Source of the DNA: an uncultured Fibrobacterota bacterium
GTDB taxonomy: Bacteria > Fibrobacterota > Chitinivibrionia > Chitinivibrionales > FEN-1185
Assembly (NCBI GenBank): GCA_963753345.1
Contig: CAVWBU010000024.1
Span: forward strand, 160,001 to 224,000
Direction: 5' to 3'
Length of the DNA: 64,000 nucleotides
The position numbers and the translations under genes were made by a program. Positions 3,009-49,035 of this stretch are shown here, one piece after another; within the stretch, counting starts at the first letter, position 1, and each line of letters begins with the position of its first letter. The notes beneath the pieces are model-generated. The model was not told where the DNA came from. It worked only from the letters and a program-made list of their open reading frames with translations, and did no database searches.

Positions 3009-4250
3009 ATGAAAAAAACCACACGCAAGAGCCCCATCCCGCCGTTTGCGCGCGCCGCATCGGCGCTTCAGGCGCGGGAGGAGCTTTCCATTGCCCGCGG
3101 GATCCAAACGGCCATGGTTCCAAAGCGGCTTCCGGCAGTGGAAGGCATCGAGATGGCTTCGCTGTACCTTCCTTCGGATCGGTTGGGCGGCGACCTCTTC
3201 GACGTAATCCAGAAAAGCGACGACGTTCTTGTGATAACCATATTCGACGTCGCGAGCAGCGGCGTCCCCGCCGCACTGCTCGCGTCCCTTGCAAAAGTGT
3301 CTTTTGCAAACAACATACGCGAGGTTTCCTCGCCGCGCGCGGTCATGGAGCGCGTCAACAGGGAAATGATGCGCAGCGTTTCGGCGCGCTATTACATCAC
3401 CGCGCTCGTCGCGTACCTTGACCTGCACGACAACAGGCTCACCTATTGCAACGCGGCCCACCCCTATCCGATTATCGTGCGCACCGGCTCAGGCGCGGTG
3501 GAGCCGATCAAGTCGACCGGCGTGTGCATGGGGCTGTTCGAAACGGGACAATTCGAGGAAAGAAGCCTGTATCTCAATTCCGGCGATTGGCTGCTGTTCT
3601 TTACCGACGGTTTGTACAGTCTCTTTCCAGGGGAGAATGCCCTCGCCAGCCGGAGACTGCTGGAACGGGAAGCTGCCGCATCGGCAGGTGACGGGTCGCC
3701 CGGGCAATTCATAAAAAGACTGCGGCGGCGCTGCACCGCGGCGGCCCGCAAAGCGGTCCGTGACGATGTCACCGTGCTGTCGATTGTGTTTCTTGCACAG
3801 TCACGCAAAAACCTTATCAAGGAAAAACTCGGCTTCATGCAAAACGATCCCGTGTATCTGCAGTTTATCAGTTATTTCGAGGAGATGGACAAGGCGACGT
3901 CGGTGATTCTGAGCGCCATGGATTCGCTCGGGTATCCCGACGAAAGCATCAGGAAGATGAAGATCATTCTCACCGAGTTGTTCGCCAACGCCATCTACCA
4001 CGGGAACAAGGGCGACCACGCGAAGAAGGTGACGGTGGGCCACACCATTGACAACAAAAAGGTGACCATATCCATCATGGACGAAGGGGACGGCTTTGAT
4101 CCGTCGAAGGTCCCCGACCCCACCCTGCCGGAAAACCTTGTGAAGGATTGCGGCAGAGGAATTTACATTGTGAGAAACTACGCCGATACATTGGAGTTCA
4201 ACGAGAAGGGAAACCGGGTGACCATAACGAAATACCATGTCACAAAATAA
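3009..4250 (+). CDS. SpoIIE/RsbU-type PP2C phosphatase fused to RsbW-like anti-sigma kinase (HATPase) domain
   Basis: GGDLFD, CNAAHP, FTDGL, DDVT in the PP2C part; ELFANAIYHG, DEGDGFD, GRGIY in the C-terminal GHKL domain. Confidence 0.9.
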   Translation: MKKTTRKSPIPPFARAASALQAREELSIARGIQTAMVPKRLPAVEGIEMASLYLPSDRLGGDLFDVIQKSDDVLVITIFDVASSGVPAALLASLAKVSFANNIREVSSPRAVMERVNREMMRSVSARYYITALVAYLDLHDNRLTYCNAAHPYPIIVRTGSGAVEPIKSTGVCMGLFETGQFEERSLYLNSGDWLLFFTDGLYSLFPGENALASRRLLEREAAASAGDGSPGQFIKRLRRRCTAAARKAVRDDVTVLSIVFLAQSRKNLIKEKLGFMQNDPVYLQFISYFEEMDKATSVILSAMDSLGYPDESIRKMKIILTELFANAIYHGNKGDHAKKVTVGHTIDNKKVTISIMDEGDGFDPSKVPDPTLPENLVKDCGRGIYIVRNYADTLEFNEKGNRVTITKYHVTK

Positions 4251-30597: not shown

Positions 30598-32487
30598 ATG
30601 GAAAACGGATCACCCGATCGAGAAGTGGAGAGCGGCGGCCCTGGGCCTTCGTCCCCGGGCATTCTCTCACGGGAGATTCCGGTGCTGCCCGACGGCTCCG
30701 CTCCCCTGCCGCTCGGCTCCGGCACCATCGTGTCGGTGCTCGGCGAGGGCGGCGTTGCTATCGTGTACGAGATCTGGGTGGAAAAGCTCGGGGTCGCCCG
30801 CGCCGTGAAGGTGCTCAAGCCGAACGCCTCCATCGAATCGGCCGGCAGGTTCGAAACCGAAATGCGGATAACGGCCCAGTTGCGCCATCCCAACATCATC
30901 GAAATCCACAACGTGGGCGAGTGGCACGGGCTCCCCTACATCGAGATGGAAAAGATAGAAGGGTTTTCCCTCGACACCATCATCCGCGAACGGGGGAGCC
31001 TGCCCCTTCCAATCTGCACGTCCATAGCGATCATCACGTGCAGGGCGCTTTCCTACACGCACAACCATGTCTATCTTGTAAACGATGTGGAACACCGCGG
31101 GATCCTGCACCGCGACCTCAAGCCGGGCAACATCATGATCTCGCGGTCGGGCGCGGTGAAACTCATGGACTTCGGCCTTGCCACGCCGACCGGCATCTCC
31201 ATGCACACCATGGAGGGGACCGTGGTGGGATCGCTGCAGTACATAGCGCCGGAGCTTTTAGAGGAAAGCCGGCGGGCCGATGCGCGGTCCGACATCTTTT
31301 CGCTCGGCTGCGTGCTGTACGAGATGATAACCGGTCACAAAACGTTCTCCGAGAAGAACATGGCCAAGCTGGTGACGGCGCGGCTCAAGAACGACTACAA
31401 ACCGCTGGGGGAATTCAGGGTCAAATGCCCTCGCTCGCTTGCAACGCTGGTGACCGGCTGTCTCGCGCTGCACCCGGAAAAACGCTTTCGTTCCGCCGCG
31501 GAAGTCCTGAGGCGGCTGGAGAAAATTCACGCAAGACTGACAAATGACAAGCCGGAAGACCTTGTCGAATGCTACATCAACTCCAGCCTCCGGAAGAACA
31601 CCGTCTCGTTCAGGCGGCCGCTGCCCCGTTTCGGCGTCGCTCCCGCGGTCGCCGCCGCGGCGGTCGCTATCGGCGGGTGCCTGTTTGCCATGCCCGATCT
31701 CCCCTACCGTATTGAGCGCTTCATCGCGTACGCGCGATTCACCAGCGCGCCGGAGGCCTATCGCCGGATAACCGGCTTGCCCGCGGCGAGGCGGTTGTCC
31801 GGGAAACGGCAGGGCCAGTCTTCCGAAGGACCGGTTCCCTCCCGTAAAGCTTGGACCGGCGAGAATCCTGCGTCCCCGGCCGAGCCGAAGAGCGGCTGGC
31901 AGTCCGGTGCGGCTCCCGGCCCGGAAGACCGGGCTCTTGTCGCGGCGCTGCAGAGAAAATACGGCACCAGAGACATGCTCGACATACTGGGCCGCGAAAC
32001 GGACAAAGGCAAATTCGTTTCCACGCTCAGGCTGTTCGACGCGCTCGACAGGGAGAGCGCCGCCACGGTTAGAGCGCGCCTGTACCTAATGCGCGCGCTG
32101 AAGGGGCTGGGCAACAAAGGGGCGCTCGCGGCATTCTTCATGAGGCCCGACATTCCCGACAAGGAATACTTTGTCGCCAAGGCCCAGTACCTTGCGTCCC
32201 TCAAACGGTACATCGAAGCGATTGACATGTGCGAAACAGGCAGGCAGTCGCCGGCCTGCATCGGCGTGGCCGATTCCCTCGATCGGATGGCGTCGTATCT
32301 CAAGGCGTCCTGCCTCACGAGCCTGTTCGTGGCATCATCGACTGAGGCGAACAGAAAGCGCGCCCTGGAAAGCTGGAACGAACTCAAGGCCCTTATGCGC
32401 ACCAGGCAGGACGACCCGTACTACGGTCTTGCGGAAAAGAACATCCGCCTGCTCTCCGACCGGCCGAGCGGGGCGGCCCGTGAATAG
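30598..32487 (+). CDS. Hanks-type Ser/Thr protein kinase with TM and helical C-terminal domain
   Basis: GEGGVAIV, AVK, HRDLKPGN, DFG, APE, DIFSLG. Confidence 0.93.
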   Translation: MENGSPDREVESGGPGPSSPGILSREIPVLPDGSAPLPLGSGTIVSVLGEGGVAIVYEIWVEKLGVARAVKVLKPNASIESAGRFETEMRITAQLRHPNIIEIHNVGEWHGLPYIEMEKIEGFSLDTIIRERGSLPLPICTSIAIITCRALSYTHNHVYLVNDVEHRGILHRDLKPGNIMISRSGAVKLMDFGLATPTGISMHTMEGTVVGSLQYIAPELLEESRRADARSDIFSLGCVLYEMITGHKTFSEKNMAKLVTARLKNDYKPLGEFRVKCPRSLATLVTGCLALHPEKRFRSAAEVLRRLEKIHARLTNDKPEDLVECYINSSLRKNTVSFRRPLPRFGVAPAVAAAAVAIGGCLFAMPDLPYRIERFIAYARFTSAPEAYRRITGLPAARRLSGKRQGQSSEGPVPSRKAWTGENPASPAEPKSGWQSGAAPGPEDRALVAALQRKYGTRDMLDILGRETDKGKFVSTLRLFDALDRESAATVRARLYLMRALKGLGNKGALAAFFMRPDIPDKEYFVAKAQYLASLKRYIEAIDMCETGRQSPACIGVADSLDRMASYLKASCLTSLFVASSTEANRKRALESWNELKALMRTRQDDPYYGLAEKNIRLLSDRPSGAARE

Positions 32488-32488
32488 G

Positions 32489-32980
32489 ATGCCACAGCAT
32501 GCGCGCGCCGCGGCCGCGCTGCTTGCGTGTTGCGCGCTGCACGCATTCCCCGACGCCATCGTTATCAGCGGCAACGGCCCCGACTTCCCCCTTGACGTGG
32601 ACAGCGTTTCCTTTGTCGCCTGGCACGACTCCGGCAAAACGGCCGATTCGCTGGTGAAGCCGCTTCCCGCCTCGCTGTACGCCGAAGTGCGGGACAACAT
32701 CGACTCGGTGTACAATTACGCCTCCGCGCTCTCGCTGCGCAGAAAGGAACTTTCCGGCTGCCCGCATGGACGGCCCTACAACGCGCGCCTTTCGTTCTTC
32801 ACCATGGGAACGCCGTCGCTCAGGATCCTGTTTTCGTGCGGGAACTACGCAAGCGCCAAGCTGCTCACCGCGACCGACCGGTATCCGTTCGTGGTAAAGT
32901 TTACAAAGGGGTTTGCGGAGAAATTGAGGAAGATTGCGCGGGGCAAGCAAGGACGGCTGAGTGAGGTCCCGATAAAGTAG
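32489..32980 (+). CDS. hypothetical secreted protein
   Basis: ATG 1 nt after the kinase stop; signal-peptide-like N-terminus. Confidence 0.65.
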   Translation: MPQHARAAAALLACCALHAFPDAIVISGNGPDFPLDVDSVSFVAWHDSGKTADSLVKPLPASLYAEVRDNIDSVYNYASALSLRRKELSGCPHGRPYNARLSFFTMGTPSLRILFSCGNYASAKLLTATDRYPFVVKFTKGFAEKLRKIARGKQGRLSEVPIK

Positions 32981-33020
32981 CCGGATATTTCTTGCGAAAA
33001 AGAGACTTCTCTTCTGAAAT

Positions 33021-33056
33021 AACCTCACCCCCGGCCCCTCTCCGCCCGGAGAGGGG
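33021..33056 (+). repeat. left inverted repeat flanking DUF559 gene
   Basis: AACCTCACCCC-CGG-CCCCTCTCCGCCCGGAGAGGGG. Confidence 0.9.
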
Positions 33057-33069
33057 AGAATGGACTGCT

Positions 33070-33483
33070 ATGAAACAAAATATGACAAGTGGTGTGGTGG
33101 CGCTGCAATATGTGGATGATTACAAGAAACGACAGTGCCGCGCTTTACGGCAGGAATCAACCAAAACGGAGAAATTATTCTGGCGTGCAGTCCGAAACAG
33201 GAAAATAGAGGGACTTAAATTCCGGCGTCAACAAGTGATCGAAGGTTTTGTTGTTGATTTCTATTGTGAGGAATTGAGGCTGATCGTTGAGTTGGATGGA
33301 TGCGTACACGATGAAATCGAACAGCAAAAAATGGACGAACAACGAAAAAGAGTATTTGAAAGACGCGGTCTGACTGAAATCCGGTTCTCCAACGATGAAA
33401 TCATGAATAACATGCCGAAGGTGCTTCAAAAAATAGGTGCCCGAAAATTCCCCTCTCCGGGCGGAGAGGGGATACAGGGGTGA
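33070..33483 (+). CDS. DUF559 / Vsr-like endonuclease
   Basis: LRQESTKTEKLFWRAVR, KFRRQ, VDFYC, IVELDG..H, IRFSN; AT-richer than its flanks. Confidence 0.93.
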   Translation: MKQNMTSGVVALQYVDDYKKRQCRALRQESTKTEKLFWRAVRNRKIEGLKFRRQQVIEGFVVDFYCEELRLIVELDGCVHDEIEQQKMDEQRKRVFERRGLTEIRFSNDEIMNNMPKVLQKIGARKFPSPGGEGIQG

Positions 33484-33487
33484 GGTT
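33450..33487 (-). repeat. right inverted repeat flanking DUF559 gene
   Basis: Reverse complement reads AACCTCACCCC-TGTAT-CCCCTCTCCGCCCGGAGAGGGG; contains the gene's TGA stop. Confidence 0.9.
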
Positions 33488-33552: not shown

Positions 33553-34581
33553 CTATTTCTTCCTACTCTTATGCGTCAACTTTACCTCCCGCCACGCTCC
33601 GATGCGCTTGTCTTTCACGAGCTTGAGGTGCGGCGTCTCCCCGGCGTCGAATATCATAAGCTCCTTGTCGGTGATCACCGTGCGTCCGCGCAGCGTCACG
33701 CCCATTCTGTTGATCGCCCGGTACTGCGTCACGAGGTGCTCGCGCATGCGCTCGAAGTCGTCGTGCTGCTCGCTGAAGGAGAAGAACAGCGTGGCGATCC
33801 CGGCCTCCCGGAGGCGCCGGTAGAGTTTGAGGGGGAACTGCTTGATCTGGCGCCGCCGCTCGAAACCGCGCTTCTGGTAGATGGAATTCCTGTCGGTAAA
33901 TAGTAAATAACAGAAGTGGGCGTCGGGAAACAGGGTGGCGAGCGGTCCGAACAGGTTGCGCAGGAGATCGTCGGCGTTCACCGTGAGTTTCTCAAGCTTG
34001 CTTTCCAGCACCAGAATGTTGCGCTGGCGGAAGTAGCGGTAGTCGAACAGGCCGTCGAGCTCCTTGATGTTCTCATAGCCGAACTTGCCCCTGCCGGTCT
34101 TCTTGAGGATCACAAGGTTGGGATATTTTCGTATTTTAAGGATATACTGCTGGGTGTTGGTGATGATGAAATCGTCGCGTTCTTTGGGATTGAAGCGCCG
34201 GTCGAAGATACCGCCGGTCTTGCCGAGCGGGTTAACGTGCTTAAGCCAGTATTTGGTGACGCGTCGCGCAATGCGCTCGGCGATGTCGCCCACGATATTG
34301 CCCCACGCGGCATTGTCAAACGCGTACGGCGCGGCCAGAAGATCGCCCACGGTGTACAGCGGATAGCTGATGCTTTCGATCCGGTACTCGATGATGACTT
34401 TGTCAAGGTTGCCGCGGCCTTCGTTGATTTCGTCGTTGGGGTTGTGCAGGCGGTATGTTCCACGAACGCCGTGGTCGCGCCGCAGGGAATGGATGACCTC
34501 GCCGTCCGCCGCTCCGGAAGGGTTCCAGGCGGCCGGCTCAAAACCGGCGAACAGGGAATAGGGATCGTAGGGTGCGGTCAT
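33553..34581 (-). CDS. hypothetical protein, possible PD-(D/E)XK fold
   Basis: 342-aa ORF with host-like codon usage; ELDGLF...VLESK motif. Confidence 0.7.
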   Translation of the reverse strand: MTAPYDPYSLFAGFEPAAWNPSGAADGEVIHSLRRDHGVRGTYRLHNPNDEINEGRGNLDKVIIEYRIESISYPLYTVGDLLAAPYAFDNAAWGNIVGDIAERIARRVTKYWLKHVNPLGKTGGIFDRRFNPKERDDFIITNTQQYILKIRKYPNLVILKKTGRGKFGYENIKELDGLFDYRYFRQRNILVLESKLEKLTVNADDLLRNLFGPLATLFPDAHFCYLLFTDRNSIYQKRGFERRRQIKQFPLKLYRRLREAGIATLFFSFSEQHDDFERMREHLVTQYRAINRMGVTLRGRTVITDKELMIFDAGETPHLKLVKDKRIGAWREVKLTHKSRKK

Positions 34582-37664: not shown

Positions 37665-40664
37665 TTACCGTGCATGGAATTCATGAAATTTTCGATATAC
37701 CTCTTTGAGAAGATTTTCGCCTACCAGGGTCTTGAAATCCTTGTCATTCATGTACTTCGCGGTGATCTCCTCATTGCTTTCCATGCGGTCGATGAACAGC
37801 CCTTCAAGCGCCTTTACAAAAACATATCCGAAATTTTCCATGGTATTTGCCAAGGCAGCCTGCCGTAAGGCAGGATCAGCCAAGGCATCCTCCTTGATCG
37901 AATCGAAAAAGAGCTGGTCGGAAGGCTTGAACTCGGTCCCAAACCGTTCATTCAGAATGTCGATAAGTTTTGAAAGCTCGATTTTCGGTTCACGCACGAT
38001 ATGAGTGCCAACCTCGGACGGTCCGCTCACCGGATACGGTTTCCCGCTTTCAAGAACAATTGAACCCTCGGAAATCTTTTGGAGCCGGTAATATTTGAGC
38101 GACACTTCATCGTCGAACGAATAGGATATTCCCGAGGAACGTCTTGGTAATTTGACAAGAAGGAAGCGAACAAATGCGTAGAACTTTTCGAGGTCTACAT
38201 CTTGAAACGGAATGATCTGCGAAAGGAAGGAATAGAGATTACGAAAAGCAGACAGAACCTTTCGGAAATTCTCCCGTTCCTCTTCTTCGAGTGCCTTAAA
38301 CCGGCCAACCGCCGGATCGATGGCCGCATTGATGCGGGCGTGGTCGGTGGGCGTCTGGTTCGCCGTGGGCTTAAAGAACGCCTCTGCAAAGGCCTCCACC
38401 TCGGCCTTGTAGTACACCTGCGCCGAATCAAGACGGGCTTGGAGTTCATAAAGATGGCGTGCTTCGACCCGCTCCCCCACTTCAGTTTGTTCATAGTAGG
38501 GCTGAAATGCCTCTACTATTTCTTCCCTATCATTTACAAAATCGAGCACAAAGGTTTCTTCCTTGCCCGGATGAGTGCGATTCAAGCGAGAAAGGGTCTG
38601 AACAGCTTGAATGCCGGAAAGCCGTTTGTCCACGTACATGGTATGAAGGAGCGGCTGGTCAAAGCCGGTTTGGTACTTCTCCGCGACAAGAAGCACCTGG
38701 TACTCGTCGGTTCCGAATTTCTCAGGAAGTTCTTTTTCTTTGATACTCTTATTCATGGCTGGTTCCGTATATGACGCATCCGCGTTTTCATGGTCAATGA
38801 CGGTTCCCGAAAATGCGACAAGTGTCTTGATACCGGCATATCCCTTCTCCGCGATATACTTGTCAAAAGCAATCTTGTACCTGACGGCATGAAGGCGTGA
38901 CGAGGTCACGACCATGGCCTTTGCTCTTCCGCCAATGCGCTGTTTGACGAAGGTTCTGAAGTGCTCGACCATCACCTCTGTCTTCTGGGCGATATTGTGG
39001 GGATGCAGCGACATAAACCTCGCCAGCGCTTTGGCGGCCTTTTTCTTGTCCACCTGCGGATCGTCGGCTATGGATTTGATAAGGCGGTAATAGGTAGTGT
39101 ATGTGACATAGTTCTCCAGGACATCGAGTATGAATTTTTCCTGGATAGCCTGACGCATGCTGTAAAGATGAAAAGGCTCCGGTTTACCGTCTTTTCCGAC
39201 AATGCCGAACATTTCCAGCGTCTTGTATTTCGGGGTGGCCGTAAAGGCGAAGAAACTGATATTCGGCTGGCGGCCGCGGCGGGCAAGGGTCTTGAGAATT
39301 TCCTCTTCGAAATCGGGCAGGCTGCGTTCCTCCGCCTGCTCTGCCGCGGCATCCCCGGCTTCGCGGCCTGCAAGAACGCCCCGCATTTCAGCAGCGCCTT
39401 CCCCGCTCTGCGAGCTGTGCGCTTCGTCGATAATGACCGCATATTTGCGCGACGGCAGGTCGCCGATTTTGTCCGTAACAAAGGGGAATTTCTGTAATGT
39501 GGTAATAACGATTGGAACGGCAGATGAAAGCGCCGCGGCAAGTTGGTTCGAGCTTTCGTCAATTTTCTGCACCACACCCTGCTTATGTTCAAATTGGTAA
39601 ACGGTGTTCTGCAATTGCTGGTCGAGCACCAGGCGATCCGTAATGACAATGACGGAATCAAAAACCTTTTCGTCCTTTGCACTATAGAGGCTCGAAAGCC
39701 GGTGCGCCAACCACGCAATGGAATTGCTTTTCCCGCTTCCTGCCGAATGTTGCACCAGATAATTATTGCCAACGCCGTTTGTGCGTGCGTGCGCTATCAT
39801 CTTCCGCACGGAATCGAGTTGATGGTAACGGGGGAAAATCATGGTCTCTTTCTTGAGTTTCTGCCCGCCGAATATTTTTTCCTCGATTTGCAAATGCAGG
39901 AAGCGTGCAAATATGTCAAGAAAACTGTCCCGCTGCCATACCTCTTCCCACAAATACGCCGTCTTGTACCCGTTTGGATTATCCGGATTGCCTGCCGCCG
40001 TGCCGTTGCCCTTGTTGAAAGGCAGGAAATAGGTGTTCTGCCCTGCAAGCTTCGTAGTCATGTACACTTCATCCGGATCGACGGCAAAATGAACAAGGCT
40101 ACGTTTGCGAAATTGGAAAAAGAGGTCTTTAGGATCGCGGTCGTTTTTATACTGGTGAATGGCATTTCGCCAGGTCTGACCGGTTAGTGGGTTCTTGAGT
40201 TCCGCCGATACTACAGGAATGCCGTTGATGTTGAGTACAAGGTCAATTTCGTTCTTATGGTTTTGGCTGTAACGAAGCTGCCGCGTTACGGTGAGGCGGT
40301 TGGAGTCGTAGAGGCGTTTGATTTCCGGGTTCATTCCGCTTGCGGGCGCAAAATAAGCAACCCTGAAGAGCTTCCCGAAGCACTTGAATCCGTGGCGGAG
40401 AACTTTTAGACACCCCTCACTTTCCGAGTCAAGCGCCTTGCAAAGGTCGTCGAGAAGCGTGGCCTCGGCTTTGCCTTTCTGAAGACCTTCGAGATAATCC
40501 CAGGTGTCCGGCTGAGTTTTTTTGACAAACGGGATAAGCACCGTAGGATCGAGACAGCGTGCCGGGTCGAACGATACCGGATCGCCCCTGGAGAAGTCCC
40601 CTGTGGTGAGAAGGCAATGCTCGATTGCCGTTTCAAAGGCTTTTTCTGAATGGTCGGTGGGCAT
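37665..40664 (-). CDS. hsdR: type I restriction endonuclease subunit R
   Basis: DLVLNINGIP..AELKN nuclease motif; HSAGSGKS; IIDEAHSSQ; FTATPK; QTGFDQP; QTLSRLNR. Confidence 0.96.
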   Translation of the reverse strand: MPTDHSEKAFETAIEHCLLTTGDFSRGDPVSFDPARCLDPTVLIPFVKKTQPDTWDYLEGLQKGKAEATLLDDLCKALDSESEGCLKVLRHGFKCFGKLFRVAYFAPASGMNPEIKRLYDSNRLTVTRQLRYSQNHKNEIDLVLNINGIPVVSAELKNPLTGQTWRNAIHQYKNDRDPKDLFFQFRKRSLVHFAVDPDEVYMTTKLAGQNTYFLPFNKGNGTAAGNPDNPNGYKTAYLWEEVWQRDSFLDIFARFLHLQIEEKIFGGQKLKKETMIFPRYHQLDSVRKMIAHARTNGVGNNYLVQHSAGSGKSNSIAWLAHRLSSLYSAKDEKVFDSVIVITDRLVLDQQLQNTVYQFEHKQGVVQKIDESSNQLAAALSSAVPIVITTLQKFPFVTDKIGDLPSRKYAVIIDEAHSSQSGEGAAEMRGVLAGREAGDAAAEQAEERSLPDFEEEILKTLARRGRQPNISFFAFTATPKYKTLEMFGIVGKDGKPEPFHLYSMRQAIQEKFILDVLENYVTYTTYYRLIKSIADDPQVDKKKAAKALARFMSLHPHNIAQKTEVMVEHFRTFVKQRIGGRAKAMVVTSSRLHAVRYKIAFDKYIAEKGYAGIKTLVAFSGTVIDHENADASYTEPAMNKSIKEKELPEKFGTDEYQVLLVAEKYQTGFDQPLLHTMYVDKRLSGIQAVQTLSRLNRTHPGKEETFVLDFVNDREEIVEAFQPYYEQTEVGERVEARHLYELQARLDSAQVYYKAEVEAFAEAFFKPTANQTPTDHARINAAIDPAVGRFKALEEEERENFRKVLSAFRNLYSFLSQIIPFQDVDLEKFYAFVRFLLVKLPRRSSGISYSFDDEVSLKYYRLQKISEGSIVLESGKPYPVSGPSEVGTHIVREPKIELSKLIDILNERFGTEFKPSDQLFFDSIKEDALADPALRQAALANTMENFGYVFVKALEGLFIDRMESNEEITAKYMNDKDFKTLVGENLLKEVYRKFHEFHAR

Positions 40665-40955
40665 TTCTTATCTTTCGAAATTGTCTATTGCTATTACTTC
40701 CGTATTGCTACTACGCTTCTTTCTGAATGCGGAAGTAGCAAATCGTATCTCGCATTGATTCAATCCATTATATGATTTTACGGCTGCGTTTACTGCTAAT
40801 TCAATCTCTTTTTTATTGCTATTGTTCTTCCATTGTTGACTTATGTTGTCTTTTGTGTTATCTTATTATTGCAGGCAAGCGCAGGATTGTAGAGGTCGCC
40901 GGACAACGGCGGCAGCCCGTTTCGGGTGGGATCCTCGAACCTGGGGCCTGTTAAG

Positions 40956-40989
40956 AAGCGAACTTCTCAATATGAGAGTTCGCTTTTTT
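40956..40989. terminator. terminator-like hairpin at the 3' end of the ATPase gene
   Basis: AAGCGAACT(T)CTCA-ATA-TGAGAGTTCGCTT, with a T-run on the plus strand. Confidence 0.5.
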
Positions 40990-40994
40990 CATTG

Positions 40995-42560
40995 CTATGC
41001 CGAACGCCATGTGGAAATGAATTCCCTGATTTTATTTGCCAATTCATAAACTTCACCACGTTTGGCAGAGGTTTCTTTTTTTGCGAGAATACGCATTATT
41101 TGCGGAGGGGTCTTTGCTAATTCAGTGGCAAATGAAAAAAATCTGTTTTTAGCTATGGCTTGAGGCTTATCGGCAGCATTGGCGTATAATGCGGTCAGGC
41201 GGCCCAATTTTTCGAGAATTATTTCTCCGGTCATGTTGAAAAGCTCGGTATAGTCTTCGGGATGCTGGCTAATTGTCTTCCATGCCCATTCTTCCGGTAC
41301 GTCGTTACCAGGGAGAAAAACAATCTGAGCAATCTGGCCCATTTGGGTAGCTTTCGCTTCCAACTCCGGGCCGATTTCCCTTCCGTCACCGTCAAGTACA
41401 AAGACCATATCATTTAATTTACGAAATTTTCCCAACGTATCAAGATGATTGGAAAATTGGTCTTTTCCGGTATCCCTGCCTACGTCAATATCATTCTGTA
41501 GAAAATCGAGTTCGGGACCCAAATAATCAAGAATACCCCTGATAAAATTTTCCGACTCCTCATCTTCACAAAGGAAAGATAACGTGTTTTGTGATCGACC
41601 GTATAAGGCTTTCTGGATTAAATCGCGATATGCATCTCGTCGAACAACGTTCCTGTTTGACCGCTCCAGAAAAAGCCGCCCTTCGGGTGGCACGGTTTCA
41701 AGAATCGTCGGGCTATGGCTGGTTACCACGATCTGCAGCTTGTTCCGAAGAGCGAGACGTTGTAATTCCAGCATGAGCATTTGCTGTAAATAAGGATGAA
41801 GCCCGGTCTCTACTTCGTCGATCAGCACCAGGGCTTCTGACATTTTCGATACTGCCATAGAGAGTCTCAGGATCGAACGTTCTCCGGCAGACATGTTGAA
41901 TTCCGAATATGAGGGAATGGTTCCGTCGGATTCGGCGCTACGCTGGGCGAACAACAAGTCGCGAACGCCAGAAGAAATTTTATTCAGCGCGGTGTAACGA
42001 TACGGTAAAATGGCATGAGCGAAAGCTATATCCGAAGCGTCAATCACGATGGAGTCATATTGTTTATATGCCAATTGGAGGACACTCCTGACTTCAGAAG
42101 GATTACTTAAATTCGCCAGTGTGCGAAGGTATACTTGTCGTTCAGGTTGCATGGCCTTGGGACGTCCAAAAAAACTCTTGCTCCACTTTTCCTTATTGCG
42201 CTTCCAACGCATCTGCATCGTCGCGCCCAGGTGGATATAGGTAAAAGTCAATTCGGTTTCAAACCGCGTGTCACGAAGATGTTCCTCCCCGCTCGAAGGA
42301 GAAAAAGCCGGAAAAAGACGCGCCGGCGTTAAATCGTAGCGACCAACATTATAAGCGGTAGCCAAGGCAAACAAAACCGTCGACTTACCGCACCCGTTCG
42401 CGCCGGCCAGAACCGAAACAGGGTATGAAAGGGGTACATTCAACTCGGCAATGCCGCGCAGATTCCTGATTTCGATTTTGTCGAGATTTTCCGCGCGGTT
42501 CGGTTTCTGGCCGCGAAGCTGATCCCAGATTTGTTCAAGATTTTTTTTGATCGGATTCAT
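40995..42560 (-). CDS. ABC-type (AAA_21/OLD-like) ATPase fused to TOPRIM-like domain
   Basis: Walker A GANGCGKS, signature MSAGE, Walker B LIDEVETGLHP, H-loop TSHS; C-terminal FLCED, VLDGD, FLPG..PE. Confidence 0.88.
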   Translation of the reverse strand: MNPIKKNLEQIWDQLRGQKPNRAENLDKIEIRNLRGIAELNVPLSYPVSVLAGANGCGKSTVLFALATAYNVGRYDLTPARLFPAFSPSSGEEHLRDTRFETELTFTYIHLGATMQMRWKRNKEKWSKSFFGRPKAMQPERQVYLRTLANLSNPSEVRSVLQLAYKQYDSIVIDASDIAFAHAILPYRYTALNKISSGVRDLLFAQRSAESDGTIPSYSEFNMSAGERSILRLSMAVSKMSEALVLIDEVETGLHPYLQQMLMLELQRLALRNKLQIVVTSHSPTILETVPPEGRLFLERSNRNVVRRDAYRDLIQKALYGRSQNTLSFLCEDEESENFIRGILDYLGPELDFLQNDIDVGRDTGKDQFSNHLDTLGKFRKLNDMVFVLDGDGREIGPELEAKATQMGQIAQIVFLPGNDVPEEWAWKTISQHPEDYTELFNMTGEIILEKLGRLTALYANAADKPQAIAKNRFFSFATELAKTPPQIMRILAKKETSAKRGEVYELANKIREFISTWRSA

Positions 42561-42618
42561 TGAATATCCTCTATTCTTTGTTACAAACTAAAATAACTAT
42601 TCCACAATCGAAATGGCA

Positions 42619-43965
42619 CTATGTAGCACTATTAGGAACTTTCACTTCGTTGCGGACGTCGATTTTGCCGGTGACGGCGGAGGAGATGAGGGAGGTGCGA
42701 TATTTTTGAAGAAGCACAACGCTCTGCGCTACTTTGCCAAAAACCCGATCAACCGAATCAAGCGCCTTTTCAACGGCAGAAACGATTTGAGCCTGTTCGT
42801 CCGTTGGCGGAATCGCTAGAAAAAAATTGCCCAAGTCTTCCATGGACAAATTAGGCTGAGCAGATTGAACGGCGTCTATCCAAAGCCGTTTTTGCATGAA
42901 ATCCGATTGTAAGCAAAAATGCAAGAAAGAGGGATTAGCGCTTGGCTTGGGTCTTATAAAAGCAACGGCTTGATTTGTATTGGCGGGCAGAAACTTCTTT
43001 TCGAGAATAGCAGATTTCCCAATTGTGGCACCTGCTATAACAAAAAGAATATCGGATTCCCGGAGGCATGATCTGAATATGAGCTTATTTGTTTCATCAT
43101 CTATGAAGAATTGTGGATTGGGAGAGACCGTATTGTTTATTATGTTTTCAGCCTTAATAAACCGAACAGTCCCTTCAAGTTCAATTTCTTTGCCAATAGT
43201 AGAAGGAGTTGTACCCTTAGAAATACGATCAGTTTGGAATTTAAGTCGGGATATTTTCCAGTGCTCCGGCACCTTCCCCAACCATTCCACCCCCGAATCC
43301 TTCATCTTCACCTTCGGGTCAAGCCCTTGGGTCACCGCTTGACTTATGAGCGCCACACGTTTCTTCTGCAAGAGCTCGAGTTGTTTGCGCTTCTTTTCTA
43401 TGAGGGTATCTATCCGCTCGGTCTCGCGGTCGAGAAAGGCGGCGATGGCACGTTGTTCGGGGAGAGGGGGAACAGGTATTGGAATATCTCCAACGATATC
43501 TGTGTTAAGGTTAAGTTGGGTGCCAAATTTACCAAGACCGCCATATGGTTTACCACTTGAGAAGATGTAATATAGGAAGTCACGGTTTTGTGAGAGATAT
43601 GGGAAGTAAACAAAGCCGTCGTGAATACAGCACTTTATTTTGGTGATAATAGGCTTGCCTACTGAGCCTGCAATGCTCAAAAAAAGGTCGCCTGGTTGCA
43701 TAGGAACGCTGAGTGATTTGCCCAGAATGGAAAGTCGTTGGGTAGTGGACTTAAGGTAGCGATCACTGGCTGTAACATCTGCAATACGAACCCAAGAATA
43801 TTCACCATCAGCATCGAAATATTTGGGGTCATCTATTGGACGAGGGGACGCACCGCGTTTGACAAGTGATAGCCGTTTGGTTTTCATGACTTGCCAATGA
43901 GATGGAACACGGCCAATCCATTGACTACCCGACTCTTTGTATTGCAGGTGGAATTTGTATCTCAT
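42619..43965 (-). CDS. hsdS: type I RM specificity subunit
   Basis: Two TRDs between repeats YKESGSQWIGRVPSHW / MKDSGVEWLGKVPEHW; PPLPEQ, PPTDEQ, SAVTGKIDV. Confidence 0.95.
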   Translation of the reverse strand: MRYKFHLQYKESGSQWIGRVPSHWQVMKTKRLSLVKRGASPRPIDDPKYFDADGEYSWVRIADVTASDRYLKSTTQRLSILGKSLSVPMQPGDLFLSIAGSVGKPIITKIKCCIHDGFVYFPYLSQNRDFLYYIFSSGKPYGGLGKFGTQLNLNTDIVGDIPIPVPPLPEQRAIAAFLDRETERIDTLIEKKRKQLELLQKKRVALISQAVTQGLDPKVKMKDSGVEWLGKVPEHWKISRLKFQTDRISKGTTPSTIGKEIELEGTVRFIKAENIINNTVSPNPQFFIDDETNKLIFRSCLRESDILFVIAGATIGKSAILEKKFLPANTNQAVAFIRPKPSANPSFLHFCLQSDFMQKRLWIDAVQSAQPNLSMEDLGNFFLAIPPTDEQAQIVSAVEKALDSVDRVFGKVAQSVVLLQKYRTSLISSAVTGKIDVRNEVKVPNSAT

Positions 43966-45977
43966 TCTCCCCCCGCCAGCATCTCCGCAATCTCCCTCTC
44001 AATCCCCTTCAACTCCGCCTCAATCTTCTCCAGCGGTTCCGGCGGCTCATACTTATAGAAATATCTATTGAAATTTATTTCATATCCTATCTTCGTCTTT
44101 TCCTCATCAATCCAGGCATCCGGCACATGCGGCAGCACTTCCCGCTTCATGTATTCGTCAACCTTTTCCTTGAGCGGCACGTTTTCGTAATCCCGTAGTT
44201 CTGAGTCGGGTTCCGGCTTTCCGTCGCTGTCCAGGCATATTTCCGCGGTTGGGTCGCGTTCCGAAAGTGCATCGAGGATTCCATTAAAAAGACCGGAAGA
44301 TACGGGCACATCAGCATCCTTGAGGGCACGCCGCAGAATTGAAATAAACTTCTCCCTGTTTTTGCAGAGTGGCTGCTTCTTTAACGGTTCCAAAACGGAA
44401 AGTACCTGTTTCTGCTGTTCGCGGCCTTCCTTTTCTTCCTGATCTTTGGCTTTTATGTCCTTTTTCTTTTTGCTCTCCGCAAGGCCAACAAATGATGACA
44501 AGACTTTTACCCGTTCAATTCTCTCATCCGAGACAATGAAATTGAGCTTGAGCGGCCTTTCAACGGTGATCCGCCTGTATCCGAAATCTTCATTGTCAAA
44601 TACTTTCACCTTCTCCCCGTCCTTGTAATCCCCATAGAGCCGAACTATTTCTTCAATGTGGGGCTGTGAAATTTCGTTGCGTTTGTTGCCCAGGCTCTTC
44701 CGCATCTTTTGGAAAGCTCCCGTGGCGTCGATCATCTGTATTTTTCCACGCCGCTGTCTGGCTTTGCGGTTGGTGACAATCCAAAGATACGTGCTGATGC
44801 CGGTATTGTAGAAAAGCTGGTCGGGCAAGGCGACAATGGCTTCCAGCCAGTCGTTTTCTATGATCCATTTCCTGATGTTACTCTCGCCGGAATCCGCGCT
44901 GCCGGTAAAAAGCGGCGAACCATTGAAAACAATGGCCAGTCGCGTTCCACCCTCGGCCATTGGTTTCATCTTGCTTATCATGTGCTGAAGGAAAAGAAAC
45001 GAACCATCGTTGATCCGCGGCAGGCCTGCGCCGAAGCGGCCGTCTGTGCCGCGTTCGTTGTATTCCTTGTCAATGAAATCTTTTTCCGGTTTCCATTCGA
45101 CGCCAAAGGGCGGATTTGCGAGCATGTAATCGTATTTCTTACCGGTAAAGTAATCCTCGGTGAAACTGTCCCCGAAACGGATATTCTCGATATTCTGTCC
45201 TTTTATCATCATGTCGGAGCCGCACACGGCAAAGGCTTGGTCGTTGTAGTCCTGTCCGAACACCTCCAGCGTCGCATCCGGATTGAGCTCACGAAGATAA
45301 TCTTCGGAAACCGACAGCATGCCGCCTGTGCCGCACGCAGGGTCAAAAAGCGTTCTTATTGTGCCGGGTTTCCGCAGCAGATCATCATCCGGATCGAAAA
45401 TCAGGTCTACCATGAGGCGGATAACTTCCCTCGGCGTGAAATGGTCTCCGGCCTCTTCGTTGGAGGCTTCGTTAAACCGCCTGATGAGTTCCTCGAATAT
45501 GTATCCCATTTCGATGTTGGAAACGACATCAGGGTGGAGGTCAATTTCACAGAATTTCGAAACGACCAGAAAGAGACGGTTGTGCTTGTCGAGGTTTGCA
45601 ATATGTTCTTCGAACTTGAAATGTTCGATTATTTCTCTCGCATGTGGGGAAAAATTCTTGATGTAGTGAGTAAGGTTTGCTGCAATATTTTCCGGGTCGC
45701 CTTTGAGTTTTTCGAACGTAAACCTGCTCGTGTTGTAAAATGACTGCCCGGAAGCCCGTAGTAGGATTCGTTCCTTGCCGATTTCGTTGAGCTTGCCGCC
45801 TTTCAGTTCCTTGGCCTTGGCAAGGACTTTGTCCTTGGTTGATTCCAGGACGCAATCCAGGCGCCGGAGCACCGTGAGCGGCAACATCACATCTTTATAT
45901 TGGTTGGGACGGTACGGGCCCCGGATCAGGTCGGCAACGCTCCAGATGAAACCCACTTTATCGCTGAAATTGGTCAT
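43962..45977 (-). CDS. hsdM: type I RM N6-adenine methyltransferase subunit
   Basis: FIWSVAD, GDHFTPREV, DPACGTGG, NPPF, FYNTGI. Confidence 0.96.
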   Translation of the reverse strand: MTNFSDKVGFIWSVADLIRGPYRPNQYKDVMLPLTVLRRLDCVLESTKDKVLAKAKELKGGKLNEIGKERILLRASGQSFYNTSRFTFEKLKGDPENIAANLTHYIKNFSPHAREIIEHFKFEEHIANLDKHNRLFLVVSKFCEIDLHPDVVSNIEMGYIFEELIRRFNEASNEEAGDHFTPREVIRLMVDLIFDPDDDLLRKPGTIRTLFDPACGTGGMLSVSEDYLRELNPDATLEVFGQDYNDQAFAVCGSDMMIKGQNIENIRFGDSFTEDYFTGKKYDYMLANPPFGVEWKPEKDFIDKEYNERGTDGRFGAGLPRINDGSFLFLQHMISKMKPMAEGGTRLAIVFNGSPLFTGSADSGESNIRKWIIENDWLEAIVALPDQLFYNTGISTYLWIVTNRKARQRRGKIQMIDATGAFQKMRKSLGNKRNEISQPHIEEIVRLYGDYKDGEKVKVFDNEDFGYRRITVERPLKLNFIVSDERIERVKVLSSFVGLAESKKKKDIKAKDQEEKEGREQQKQVLSVLEPLKKQPLCKNREKFISILRRALKDADVPVSSGLFNGILDALSERDPTAEICLDSDGKPEPDSELRDYENVPLKEKVDEYMKREVLPHVPDAWIDEEKTKIGYEINFNRYFYKYEPPEPLEKIEAELKGIEREIAEMLAGGE

Positions 45978-46120
45978 GGGTAACAGTCCTCTTATGCAAA
46001 GAGTCAATCGCGGTATCAACAGGCAGTGAGGTAATATAATGCCGAAAGAAGTTTACAATCCAGCAATTTCTTAGTTTCAAAGCAATCGTTACCTCTGCGC
46101 GATTTCCTTTCCAACATGGC

Positions 46121-48556: not shown

Positions 48557-49035
48557 GGCGCCCCTTGCGCGGCCGCTCCCTGCACGGCGGAAAGCCGGGC
48601 GGCCACCGTCTCGTTCACCAGCTTGCCATCGGCCCTGCCCTTCACCTGCGGCATCACGATCTTCATCACCTTTCCCACGTCCTGTTTTCCCTGCGCGCCC
48701 GATTCGGTGATGGCCGCCGTCACGATCGTCTCGATTTCCACCTTGGAAAGCTGAGGGGGAAGGTACTTTGTAAAGAGACCGATTTGGAACCGCTCGCGGT
48801 CGGCGAGGTCGGCACGGCCCGCGGCCCTGAACTGCTCCTCGGATTCGGTGCGCTGCTTGATGGCCTTGGCAACAACGCCTGCAACATTTCCGTCGGAAAG
48901 TTCCTTGCGCTCCATGAGTTCGAGGTTCTTGATCTCCGAGTGCAGCGTGCGCAGCGCCAGAAGTTTTTCCTTTTCCTGCGCCTTCATCGCGGCTTTGATG
49001 TCGGCAAGCAGCGTTTCGAGAATGGTTAATGCCAT
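48553..49035 (-). CDS. GatB/YqeY domain protein
   Basis: DIKAAMKA, KQRTES..QF..AGR.DL, YLPPQL, GKVMK, GRADG. Confidence 0.93.
   Translation of the reverse strand: MALTILETLLADIKAAMKAQEKEKLLALRTLHSEIKNLELMERKELSDGNVAGVVAKAIKQRTESEEQFRAAGRADLADRERFQIGLFTKYLPPQLSKVEIETIVTAAITESGAQGKQDVGKVMKIVMPQVKGRADGKLVNETVAARLSAVQGAAAQGAP

Follow-up and report, generated by a model that had tools for sequence, protein, structure and literature searches.

Genes for DUF559 nucleases are accompanied by copies of a structured DNA module, and this linkage is general across phyla. One such gene, bracketed by two inverted modules, lies in the window, the 64-kb stretch of Fibrobacterota DNA analysed here. The module is a repeat already known as BoxC, PIT or TM; what appears to be new is its pairing with DUF559/YcjD nuclease genes, including that of E. 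coli. The flanking modules are candidate cognate repeats of the nuclease. The reading we lean towards, with modest confidence, is a partnership resembling that of REP elements and RAYT proteins, in which a Vsr-fold nuclease is the partner of the BoxC/PIT/TM repeat; the window would hold one copy of a widespread unit whose parts travel together. No publication tying DUF559 or YcjD to these repeats was found in a literature search with few subscription papers within reach.

A nuclease gene between two inverted modules

The unit occupies most of a 572-bp spacer between convergent open reading frames, which end at 32980 (+) and 33553 (-); its features are listed in Table 1. Each arm is made of a C-rich box (ACCTCACCCC), a loop of 3-5 nt and a 10-bp GC hairpin (CCCCTCTCCG..CGGAGAGGGG). 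The arms are 36-38 nt long (33021-33056 and 33450-33487) and have identical blocks of 11 and 22-23 nt in common. The letters of the window agree with the arm sequences given by an earlier, sequence-only reading, which had also claimed identical blocks of 11 and 22 bp and hairpins of 10 bp. A repeat search bore this out: it recovered an inverted repeat of 23 nt, 100% complementary (33035-33057 with 33449-33471), and a hairpin of 10-11 bp within each arm. The 22-nt hairpin block was found in two places only in the 64 kb, and none of 100 shuffles matched it. The 11-nt outer block AACCTCACCCC was likewise confined to both arms within the 64 kb; by itself it carries little weight, as at least two matches at no more than one mismatch turned up in 17 of 100 shuffles. 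Folding of the four arm strands as single-stranded DNA gave energies of -9.7 to -13.1 kcal/mol, with z-scores between -1.9 and -3.4.

Table 1 Features of the unit in the Fibrobacterota window (position 1 is the first letter of the window)
Feature	Position	Strand	Remarks
Whole unit, 467 bp	33021..33487	+	left module, DUF559 gene, right module inverted
Left outer box AACCTCACCCC	33021..33031	+	its complement supplies the third strand in the predicted intrastrand triplex
Left GC hairpin CCCCTCTCCG-CC-CGGAGAGGGG	33035..33056	+	inverted repeat, folding, covariance model
DUF559/YcjD-like PD-(D/E)XK nuclease gene (putative)	33070..33483	+	137 aa from ATG at 33070
Right GC hairpin, 22 nt identical to left, inverted	33450..33471	-	within the end of the coding frame
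Right outer box, + strand reading GGGGTGAGGTT	33477..33487	-	provides the TGA stop of the gene

A covariance model made from modules of other genomes gave the two window arms 34.5 and 31.9 bits. The 64-kb window contains only these two real module copies, both at the DUF559 gene. A third match to the model (48730-48764, 18.6 bits) sits within a YqeY-family coding frame and was therefore rejected as chance. Around the unit, no intron or other Rfam family was found at the gathering threshold, and Rfam holds no family for the module itself. Sub-threshold Rfam matches, in the window region and in six repeat-rich loci, were limited to microRNA-precursor hairpins and whalefall-1.

The sole gene inside the unit matched PF04480 (DUF559) with an E-value of 1.8e-33 and 115 bits, against a cut-off of 20.6, and the GC content of its core is 42.9% versus 57.8% in the remaining window, as expected from the earlier description of a single, AT-richer DUF559 gene. 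The same description had placed the stop codon within the right repeat and had seen no target duplication. The TGA at 33481-33483 does fall in the right outer box, and neither a target-site duplication nor a direct repeat is visible in the bases bordering the unit. The window copy is a lone, low-GC, gene-bearing unit between convergent genes and is, most simply, probably a fairly recent arrival.

The gene most likely starts at the ATG given in Table 1; its frame is open already from a TTG at 32992. The end of the left purine arm GGAGAGGGG is 13 nt upstream of this ATG, a position from which it could act as a ribosome-binding site or as the hiding place of one. The final ~14 residues of the protein are encoded by the right module and are disordered in the predicted structure. 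A promoter-terminator scan found neither a promoter-like site on the gene's strand nor a classical terminator for the DUF559 gene. What the scan returned was a single promoter-like site, on the strand opposite the gene, and, on the minus strand, three terminator-like sites; this is about the number expected from shuffles, and the sites were not used.

Pfam analysis of the gene product returned DUF559, MTES_1575 and DUF2726 only, and the NCBIfam YcjD equivalog was matched below its cut-off (66.8 bits versus 218). The AlphaFold model is confident (pLDDT 83.2) and predicts a Vsr-like fold. Its nearest solved structures are 3HRL (profile E 9.3e-29, TM 0.82), a structural-genomics entry for a putative endonuclease-like protein from N. 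gonorrhoeae, and the catalytic domain of the homing endonuclease I-Bth0305I (3R3P; Foldseek E 1.8e-4, probability 1.0; profile E 6.6e-6). Weaker structural matches were to E. coli Vsr (E 0.09-0.2), TnsA and R2 endonuclease domains, and the Vsr profile PF03852 did not match the DUF559 protein. D63 and D76 are invariant and E74 and H80 nearly invariant in 34 sequences; these four are the putative catalytic residues, and the window protein is a putative active nuclease. DUF559 is a very large family for which we know of no demonstrated substrate. Besides the DUF559 frame and the three frames closest to it, 52 further window frames were scanned; among these 52 no C5 cytosine methyltransferase, recombinase, invertase or transposase was found, and the only methyltransferases were an N6 type I HsdM and a PrmA-like protein.

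The arms and the BoxC/PIT/TM repeats

The three-block motif was named BoxC, later PIT (potential intrastrand triplex) and then TM or TMECO, according to Holder et al. 2015 (PMC4666352), the main text of which is the source for this paragraph. E. coli copies have been on record since the 1990s, and the motif is now listed for more than 260 genomes, with a very high frequency in some cyanobacteria and enterobacteria. E. coli MG1655 has 23 copies, always intergenic and often in inverted pairs, and the E. coli consensus folds as a triplex in vitro. TM loci are tied to genomic instability by a mechanism called unclear; the discussion puts this instability down to replication stalling. The same text reports that the motif was found neither associated with transposons, phages or plasmids nor correlated with what the flanking genes do. 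It gives no enzyme, no origin and no mechanism of spread, and neither 'ycjD' nor 'endonuclease' occurs in it. Its introduction, citing other work, describes PIT elements as having neither promoter nor terminator activity.

Judged by their blocks, the window arms belong to this family. In a TM, three blocks follow one another, stems measure 6-15 nt and loops 1-6 nt, and no more than one triad is mismatched (PMC4666352, main text). Both window arms have this block structure and contain 9/9 canonical triads in the purine-motif code. The best register found by script has a second loop of 3 nt in both arms, and a plain reading in 9-nt blocks gives a spacer of 3 nt on the left and 5 nt on the right. 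The arms are also intergenic in the published sense, lying in a spacer between convergent frames, the right one overlapping only the unit's own gene. They resemble the published repeats in the order of a C block followed by two G blocks, with short loops, in intergenic position, in the frequent occurrence as inverted pairs and in similar block sequences (CCCTCTCCC / GGGAGAGGG / GGGTGAGGG). Unlike these, which the main text of PMC4666352 treats as orphan repeats, the window copies bracket a nuclease gene. The G-rich strand of the window arms can, by prediction, fold into an intrastrand triplex.

Modules of relatives showed that this code is maintained as the sequences diverge. At least 8/9 canonical triads are kept in 143 of 171 unique modules, and the mean number of triads was 8.01, compared with 7.40 when boxes were swapped among modules; none of 500 swaps reached 8.01. 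Box and stem change together, in the combinations TCA/TCTCC (43 times), TAA/TTCCC (41), TCT/TCTCC (24) and CC[A/T]/TCCCC (21). In the hairpin, 97.2% of stem cells pair, and changes on both sides were present in 176 cells versus 61.5 in shuffles (0/500 shuffles reached 176), counted on sequences that had been chosen or aligned with the hairpin in mind. A less biased test, in which sites were picked by the box and the 5' arm, found a recognisable 3' arm within 16 nt in 130 of 191 cases and none in the other 61; 112 of the 130 were exactly complementary at both variable positions. The covariation preserves both the hairpin and the triplex code of the modules. The purine-motif reading on the G-rich strand is the published one and fits better than a pyrimidine reading: a pyrimidine third strand for the box (a mirror repeat on the C-rich strand) failed on the ACCTAACCCC / CCCCTTCCC type.

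Linkage of gene and module across genomes

Homologous loci were collected by a genome scan with alignment of homologues, and the best 80 of 365 relatives, with 39-57% identity, were analysed; L054, which is the L053 region assembled twice, is counted among the 80 together with L053. Using a strict pattern, 158 modules were found within 300 bp of the gene (2.11 per kb), compared with 46 in the remaining 567 kb of the same loci (0.081 per kb), a 26-fold higher density near the gene. At least one module lies near the gene in 67 of these best 80 loci and one on each side in 45, and the strict pattern found none near the gene in 13. First-order randomised loci contained 0-1 modules versus 209 in the real ones. 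A covariance model built from 31 modules gave 336 matches at E <= 0.01 and added modules at loci missed by the pattern (for example L004, L043, L073 and L074). Loci with gene-near modules span 13 named phyla among the best 80 of 365. Homologues thus carry flanking repeats, which the sequence-only reading had suggested as a check. Copies without a gene, another of its proposed checks, exist as single, paired and arrayed modules in other genomes and in either orientation.

The arrangement around the gene is variable. The nearest modules are oriented +/- at 20 of the 80 loci, -/+ at 12, +/+ at 8 and -/- at 5, the others being one-sided or without modules, and in L044 and L003 the gene sits between two direct copies of a gene-less doublet. 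The inverted repeats claimed around the nuclease are thus real for the window and the 20 +/- loci, but they are not a uniform layout. The TGA of the box serves as the stop codon at the same offset in 9 of 81 cases (the window and 8 loci), and the TAA of ACCTAACCCC does so in 4 further loci. On a Pseudanabaena plasmid the gene is flanked by inverted doublets of the CCCCCCAATTCTGGGGGG type. Divergent module sequences also flank the gene in Deinococcus megaplasmids, E. coli and N. gonorrhoeae. Strong module copies within 40 kb of D. aetherius are confined to the two at the gene.

Several comparisons bear on how the locus is inherited. Nucleotide homology between phyla ends exactly at the boxes in L065/L066, in L053/L058 and at the left edge of L058/L065. 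In the hpa operons of Deinococcus the cassette is polymorphic for presence and absence. It lies antisense at the hpaE|oxidoreductase junction in NW-56, at oxidoreductase|hpaB in D. proteolyticus and D. wulumuqiensis and at hpaE|VOC in D. aetherius. The corresponding hpa junctions of D. ficus, D. deserti, D. psychrotolerans, D. sp. D7000 and D. radiodurans are tight or overlapping and free of the cassette, so that the empty sites proposed as a check are found in relatives. The D. proteolyticus insert is ~460 bp long with ~45-nt inverted ends, and no target duplication was seen at the D. proteolyticus or D. wulumuqiensis inserts. As an exact empty/occupied pair, D. radiodurans and D. wulumuqiensis have junctions too different for base-level boundaries. 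The appearance of three insertion points could arise if the cassette stayed in place while accessory genes next to it were gained and lost.

In 56 of 75 loci the gene has a lower GC content than its flanks (median difference -3.9 points), and the window, at -15 points, shows one of the larger gaps. Some clades have kept the locus in place: it is syntenic over 1-3.4 kb at 71-86% identity in L009/11/12/14/15, in L026/L032 and in L057/60/68, which indicates vertical inheritance there. The refutation foreseen by the sequence-only reading, a syntenic, vertically inherited locus with no empty sites, did not materialise, since synteny is seen in some clades yet empty junctions exist in Deinococcus. 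The gene tree, in which 8 of 77 inner branches have strong support, mostly follows phylum (18 changes versus ~40 in shuffles), and module type follows the gene tree (17 changes versus 28 in shuffles). As both follow it, co-evolution is inseparable from shared descent by the tree. An identical second copy of the cassette was seen in no genome, the near-identical L053 and L054 being the one region assembled twice.

The pairing includes E. coli, in which BoxC was reportedly first noticed beside envM (fabI). The ycjD frame runs through a module and its stop is a TGA in the module's hairpin loop, and the ycjD-fabI spacer is filled by three modules. The model made from modules of the relatives finds the E. 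coli copy adjoining ycjD with an E-value of 0.004. Kaplan et al. (PMC5100583) list one ycjD-fabI motif, at K-12 position 1351215, as fabI to 'yjcD' and without comment. A 256-nt doublet adjacent to ycjD has matches in 5419 of 5426 E. coli genomes, the median number of places in a genome being 20. Of 60 genomes sampled at even spacing, 37 possess the ycjD locus, and their number of places ranges over 14-37 (median 23); in the 23 that lack it the range is 1-23 (median 5). This contrast is confounded with phylogroup and is thus no test of the link. Among the 23, 12 hold at most 5 places and 8 hold 13-23. According to the accessible part of PMC12817139, ycjD occupies the fabI-sapF site only in the absence of the eefRABCD operon. 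The N. gonorrhoeae homologue, which was found by its similarity to the window protein, is flanked by modules.

Explanations of the pairing

The REP/RAYT analogy holds as architecture because homologues carry flanking repeats, empty sites exist and gene-less copies occur elsewhere. In this respect the element proposed by the sequence-only reading, REP-like and with a Vsr-fold nuclease, stands; it had missed the family to which the repeat belongs, and it is qualified by the varying layout and by the vertical inheritance in some clades. Like a RAYT gene with its REPs (or REPINs), the nuclease gene is usually single-copy and flanked by inverted short structured repeats, which in relatives and in E. 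coli are also dispersed as gene-less singlets and doublets, and it is often inherited vertically. The systems differ in their enzymes, RAYT being an HUH Y1 (IS200-like) transposase that acts through a covalent intermediate, whereas the window enzyme is a putative PD-(D/E)XK hydrolase. They also differ in their repeats: a REP combines a GTAG or CGTC head with a simple hairpin, whereas the modules have a C-rich block of 9-10 nt with a triplex code.

By analogy with REP/RAYT, the nuclease would recognise the structured module, as hairpin, triplex or cruciform, and would nick or cut there. Repair or recombination at the break would then move or copy the gene with its flanking modules to new intergenic sites, and could also seed gene-less modules, doublets and arrays elsewhere in the genome. 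Both the action on the modules and the manner of copying are inferred from this analogy. We put forward more tentatively, as a possibility we would not yet back, the stronger proposal that DUF559/YcjD nucleases are the missing enzymes of the BoxC/PIT/TM repeats, which would read a three-stranded or hairpin DNA structure within their own terminal repeats, the cassette of ~470 bp being moved, and gene-less modules scattered, by break-induced copying. To our knowledge, a lone hydrolytic PD-(D/E)XK enzyme has no route to strand transfer.

The gene-repeat link gives DUF559 and the BoxC/PIT/TM repeats each a candidate partner. Their recurring pairing may point to the enzyme behind the repeat, and the link makes the question testable in E. 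coli K-12, which has ycjD and adjacent modules. If the nuclease acts on the modules, the logic of REP/RAYT would have been invented a second time, independently and with another fold, and the enzyme would be a rare protein evolved for reading an intrastrand triplex or hairpin. If DUF559/YcjD nucleases are indeed the missing enzymes, they would define a class of prokaryotic mobile elements with no DDE, HUH, serine, tyrosine or Cas1-type enzyme, and would offer a mechanism by which the genomic instability reported for these repeats arises.

Other nucleases of this fold occur in different settings. YcjD of E. coli, NGO0050 of N. gonorrhoeae (PDB 3HRL) and VsrA of Caulobacter belong to the same family as the window protein; for none of the three do we know of a demonstrated biochemical substrate. 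The EDxHD (Vsr-like) homing endonucleases, such as I-Bth0305I (PMC3239194, in the part available), have the same catalytic fold and are likewise encoded by selfish, free-standing small nuclease genes. They sit in group I introns or in 'fractured' genes with split inteins, whereas the window gene is intergenic and bounded by repeats, with no interrupted host gene. Two of the fractured-gene proteins bear separate NUMOD-3 DNA-binding motifs, according to the accessible text of PMC2677866, whereas the window protein has a single domain. Very-short-patch repair by Vsr differs in that both its profile match and its C5 methyltransferase partner are absent here, the latter from the window frames scanned.

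The association could also be one of neighbourhood only, which we regard as unlikely. The repeats would then owe their spread to a different process, for instance replication or repair by the host at non-B DNA, and would accumulate in permissive spacers, and DUF559 would be an unrelated, ordinary Vsr-type mismatch-repair or restriction-like nuclease. In line with this, E. coli genomes without the ycjD locus still contain the repeats, and the discussion in PMC4666352 attributes TM instability to replication stalling. Caulobacter VsrA is, in the portion of PMC12907096 accessible, a candidate Vsr-type repair nuclease that is functionally tied to a cytosine methyltransferase and proposed to act in T:G mismatch repair; that portion makes no mention of repeats beside the gene. 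The 26-fold enrichment argues against mere neighbourhood, its control being the flanks of the same loci, as does the recurrence of the association with different module sequences in cyanobacteria, Deinococcus, E. coli and Neisseria. A fixed junction with the stop codon inside the module, and the restriction of strong copies to the gene both in the window and in 40 kb of D. aetherius, also speak against it, and the window frames scanned lack the C5 cytosine methyltransferase to which such a repair nuclease would be linked. An autonomous transposon, which is the sequence-only reading taken strictly, is in our view quite unlikely. The modules would in that case be genuine terminal inverted repeats, and DUF559 would serve alone as the transposase of a cut-and-paste or copy-and-paste IS of ~470 bp. 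The unit shares with IS elements and MITEs the terminal inverted repeats, the stop codon within its right end and, in relatives, gene-less doublets. The recurrence of the +/- layout with the stop in the terminal repeat, the ~460-bp insert with inverted ends at Deinococcus operon junctions that are otherwise module-free, the homology between phyla that ends at the boxes and the low GC of the window copy are all compatible with such an element. The window unit differs from IS elements and MITEs, however, in having neither a target duplication, also absent from the Deinococcus inserts, nor a DDE, HUH, serine or tyrosine enzyme, and no transposase chemistry is known for a lone Vsr-fold hydrolase. 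The orientation of the repeats around DUF559 genes varies, moreover: the +/- layout is confined to 20 of 80 loci, many others having the opposite or direct order or gene-less doublets on both sides, and no genome has an identical second copy.

Two further explanations concern what the repeats might do for the gene. Modules that control or insulate a potentially toxic nuclease gene in cis, the upstream hairpin hiding the ribosome-binding site or blocking read-through and the downstream one stabilising or ending the transcript, seem improbable to us. The distance of 13 nt between GGAGAGGGG and the ATG would suit this role, as would the lack of a same-strand promoter-like site or classical terminator in the scan, and hairpins upstream of free-standing Vsr-like homing endonuclease genes are noted in the accessible text of PMC2677866. 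The same module with its conserved box nevertheless occurs in arrays far from any DUF559 gene and in either orientation, and the activity assays cited in the introduction of PMC4666352 also argue against a promoter or terminator role. Programmed inversion of the gene between its inverted repeats appears very improbable, since flipping would alter neither the gene nor any promoter relation, and no invertase or recombinase was present in the 52 window frames scanned. In its favour, the available part of PMC9881135 reports a 14-fold enrichment of 'DUF559 domain-containing protein' among predicted targets of programmed inversion. DUF559 is listed there as a predicted target without analysis, and the prediction rests on inverted repeats, which the modules explain.

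Arrangements of the DUF559 gene and its flanking modules in other genomes

Among the loci of other genomes carrying DUF559 homologues (L-numbers), two showed the nuclease gene with a doublet on each side, the two doublets being direct copies; each consists of a module and its inverted partner separated by a spacer without the gene. These copies measured 163 and 168 bp in L044 (4808-5520) and 99 bp each in L003 (1961-2636). Such a layout would result if a circle integrated at a doublet. Modules were also found in regularly spaced tandem arrays at five places in L062, L064, L052 and L090 (see table).

In D. wulumuqiensis, the DUF559 gene of the cassette was broken by an insert of ~130 bp (L092:~3027-3160). 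This insert has terminal inverted repeats of its own (TACGGATTCCG...CGGAATCCGTA) and looks like a small non-autonomous element. On the Pseudanabaena plasmid, the DUF559 gene and doublets were surrounded by very large helicase, exonuclease, AAA, kinase/phosphatase and toxin-antitoxin genes (L081, 1-40363), a stretch that looks like a defence island.

Variation within the module and the E. coli ycjD locus

Analysis of the modules, each made of a C-rich box, a short loop and a GC hairpin, revealed a variant purine arm, GGCGAGGG in place of GGAGAGGG, that recurs across distant genomes and results in a T·C mismatch at one position of the stem. At that position the mismatch was present in 8 of the 185 unique modules, and also in both E. 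coli copies (L089:1843-1882 and 2044-2083). Other loci showing it were L009, L011, L012 and L014 (right modules), L010, L013 and L062. An additional small GC hairpin, which makes the modules concerned tripartite, was found in L001 (5401-5444), L010, L039 and L041, and in Deinococcus L082, L084, L088 and L092. In some modules (e.g. GGCCTTCGGCC) it separates the box from the main hairpin; in the Deinococcus modules it lies outside the box.

Upstream of E. coli ycjD, the module-flanked DUF559 gene beside fabI, an inverted repeat was identified (L089:1460-1504) whose 19-bp arms match perfectly around a 7-nt loop. The 3' arm has GAGGTGA at its end, leaving a single base before the ATG at 1506. In sequence, this repeat is unrelated to the modules. 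In an evenly spaced sample of E. coli genomes (n = 60), the median number of repeat copies was 23 in genomes with the ycjD locus versus 5 in those without, phylogroup being a confounder in this comparison.

Neighbourhood of the DUF559 unit in the window

Searches against Pfam and NCBIfam assigned no family to either of the ORFs adjoining the unit (for the upstream ORF, the NCBIfam search covered the last 166 aa only). A type I restriction-modification cluster lies ~4 kb away on the minus strand (window 37668-46019).

Tandem module arrays and genes neighbouring the DUF559 unit
Feature	Position	Strand	Remark
Tandem module array	L062:4550-4925		spacing ~105-123 bp
Tandem module array	L062:7472-7866		spacing 119 bp
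Tandem module array	L064:4522-4873		spacing ~104 bp
Tandem module array	L052:5407-5663		spacing 73 bp
Tandem module array	L090:1993-2689		N. gonorrhoeae; spacing 281 bp
Upstream flanking ORF	window 32171-32980	+	up to 269 aa; adjoins unit
Other flanking ORF	window 33553-34581	-	342 aa; adjoins unit
HsdR-like	window 37668-40664	-	type I cluster
AAA_21/AAA_15 ATPase gene	window 40998-42560	-	type I cluster, between R and S
HsdS	window 42622-43965	-	type I cluster
HsdM	window 43965-46019	-	type I cluster
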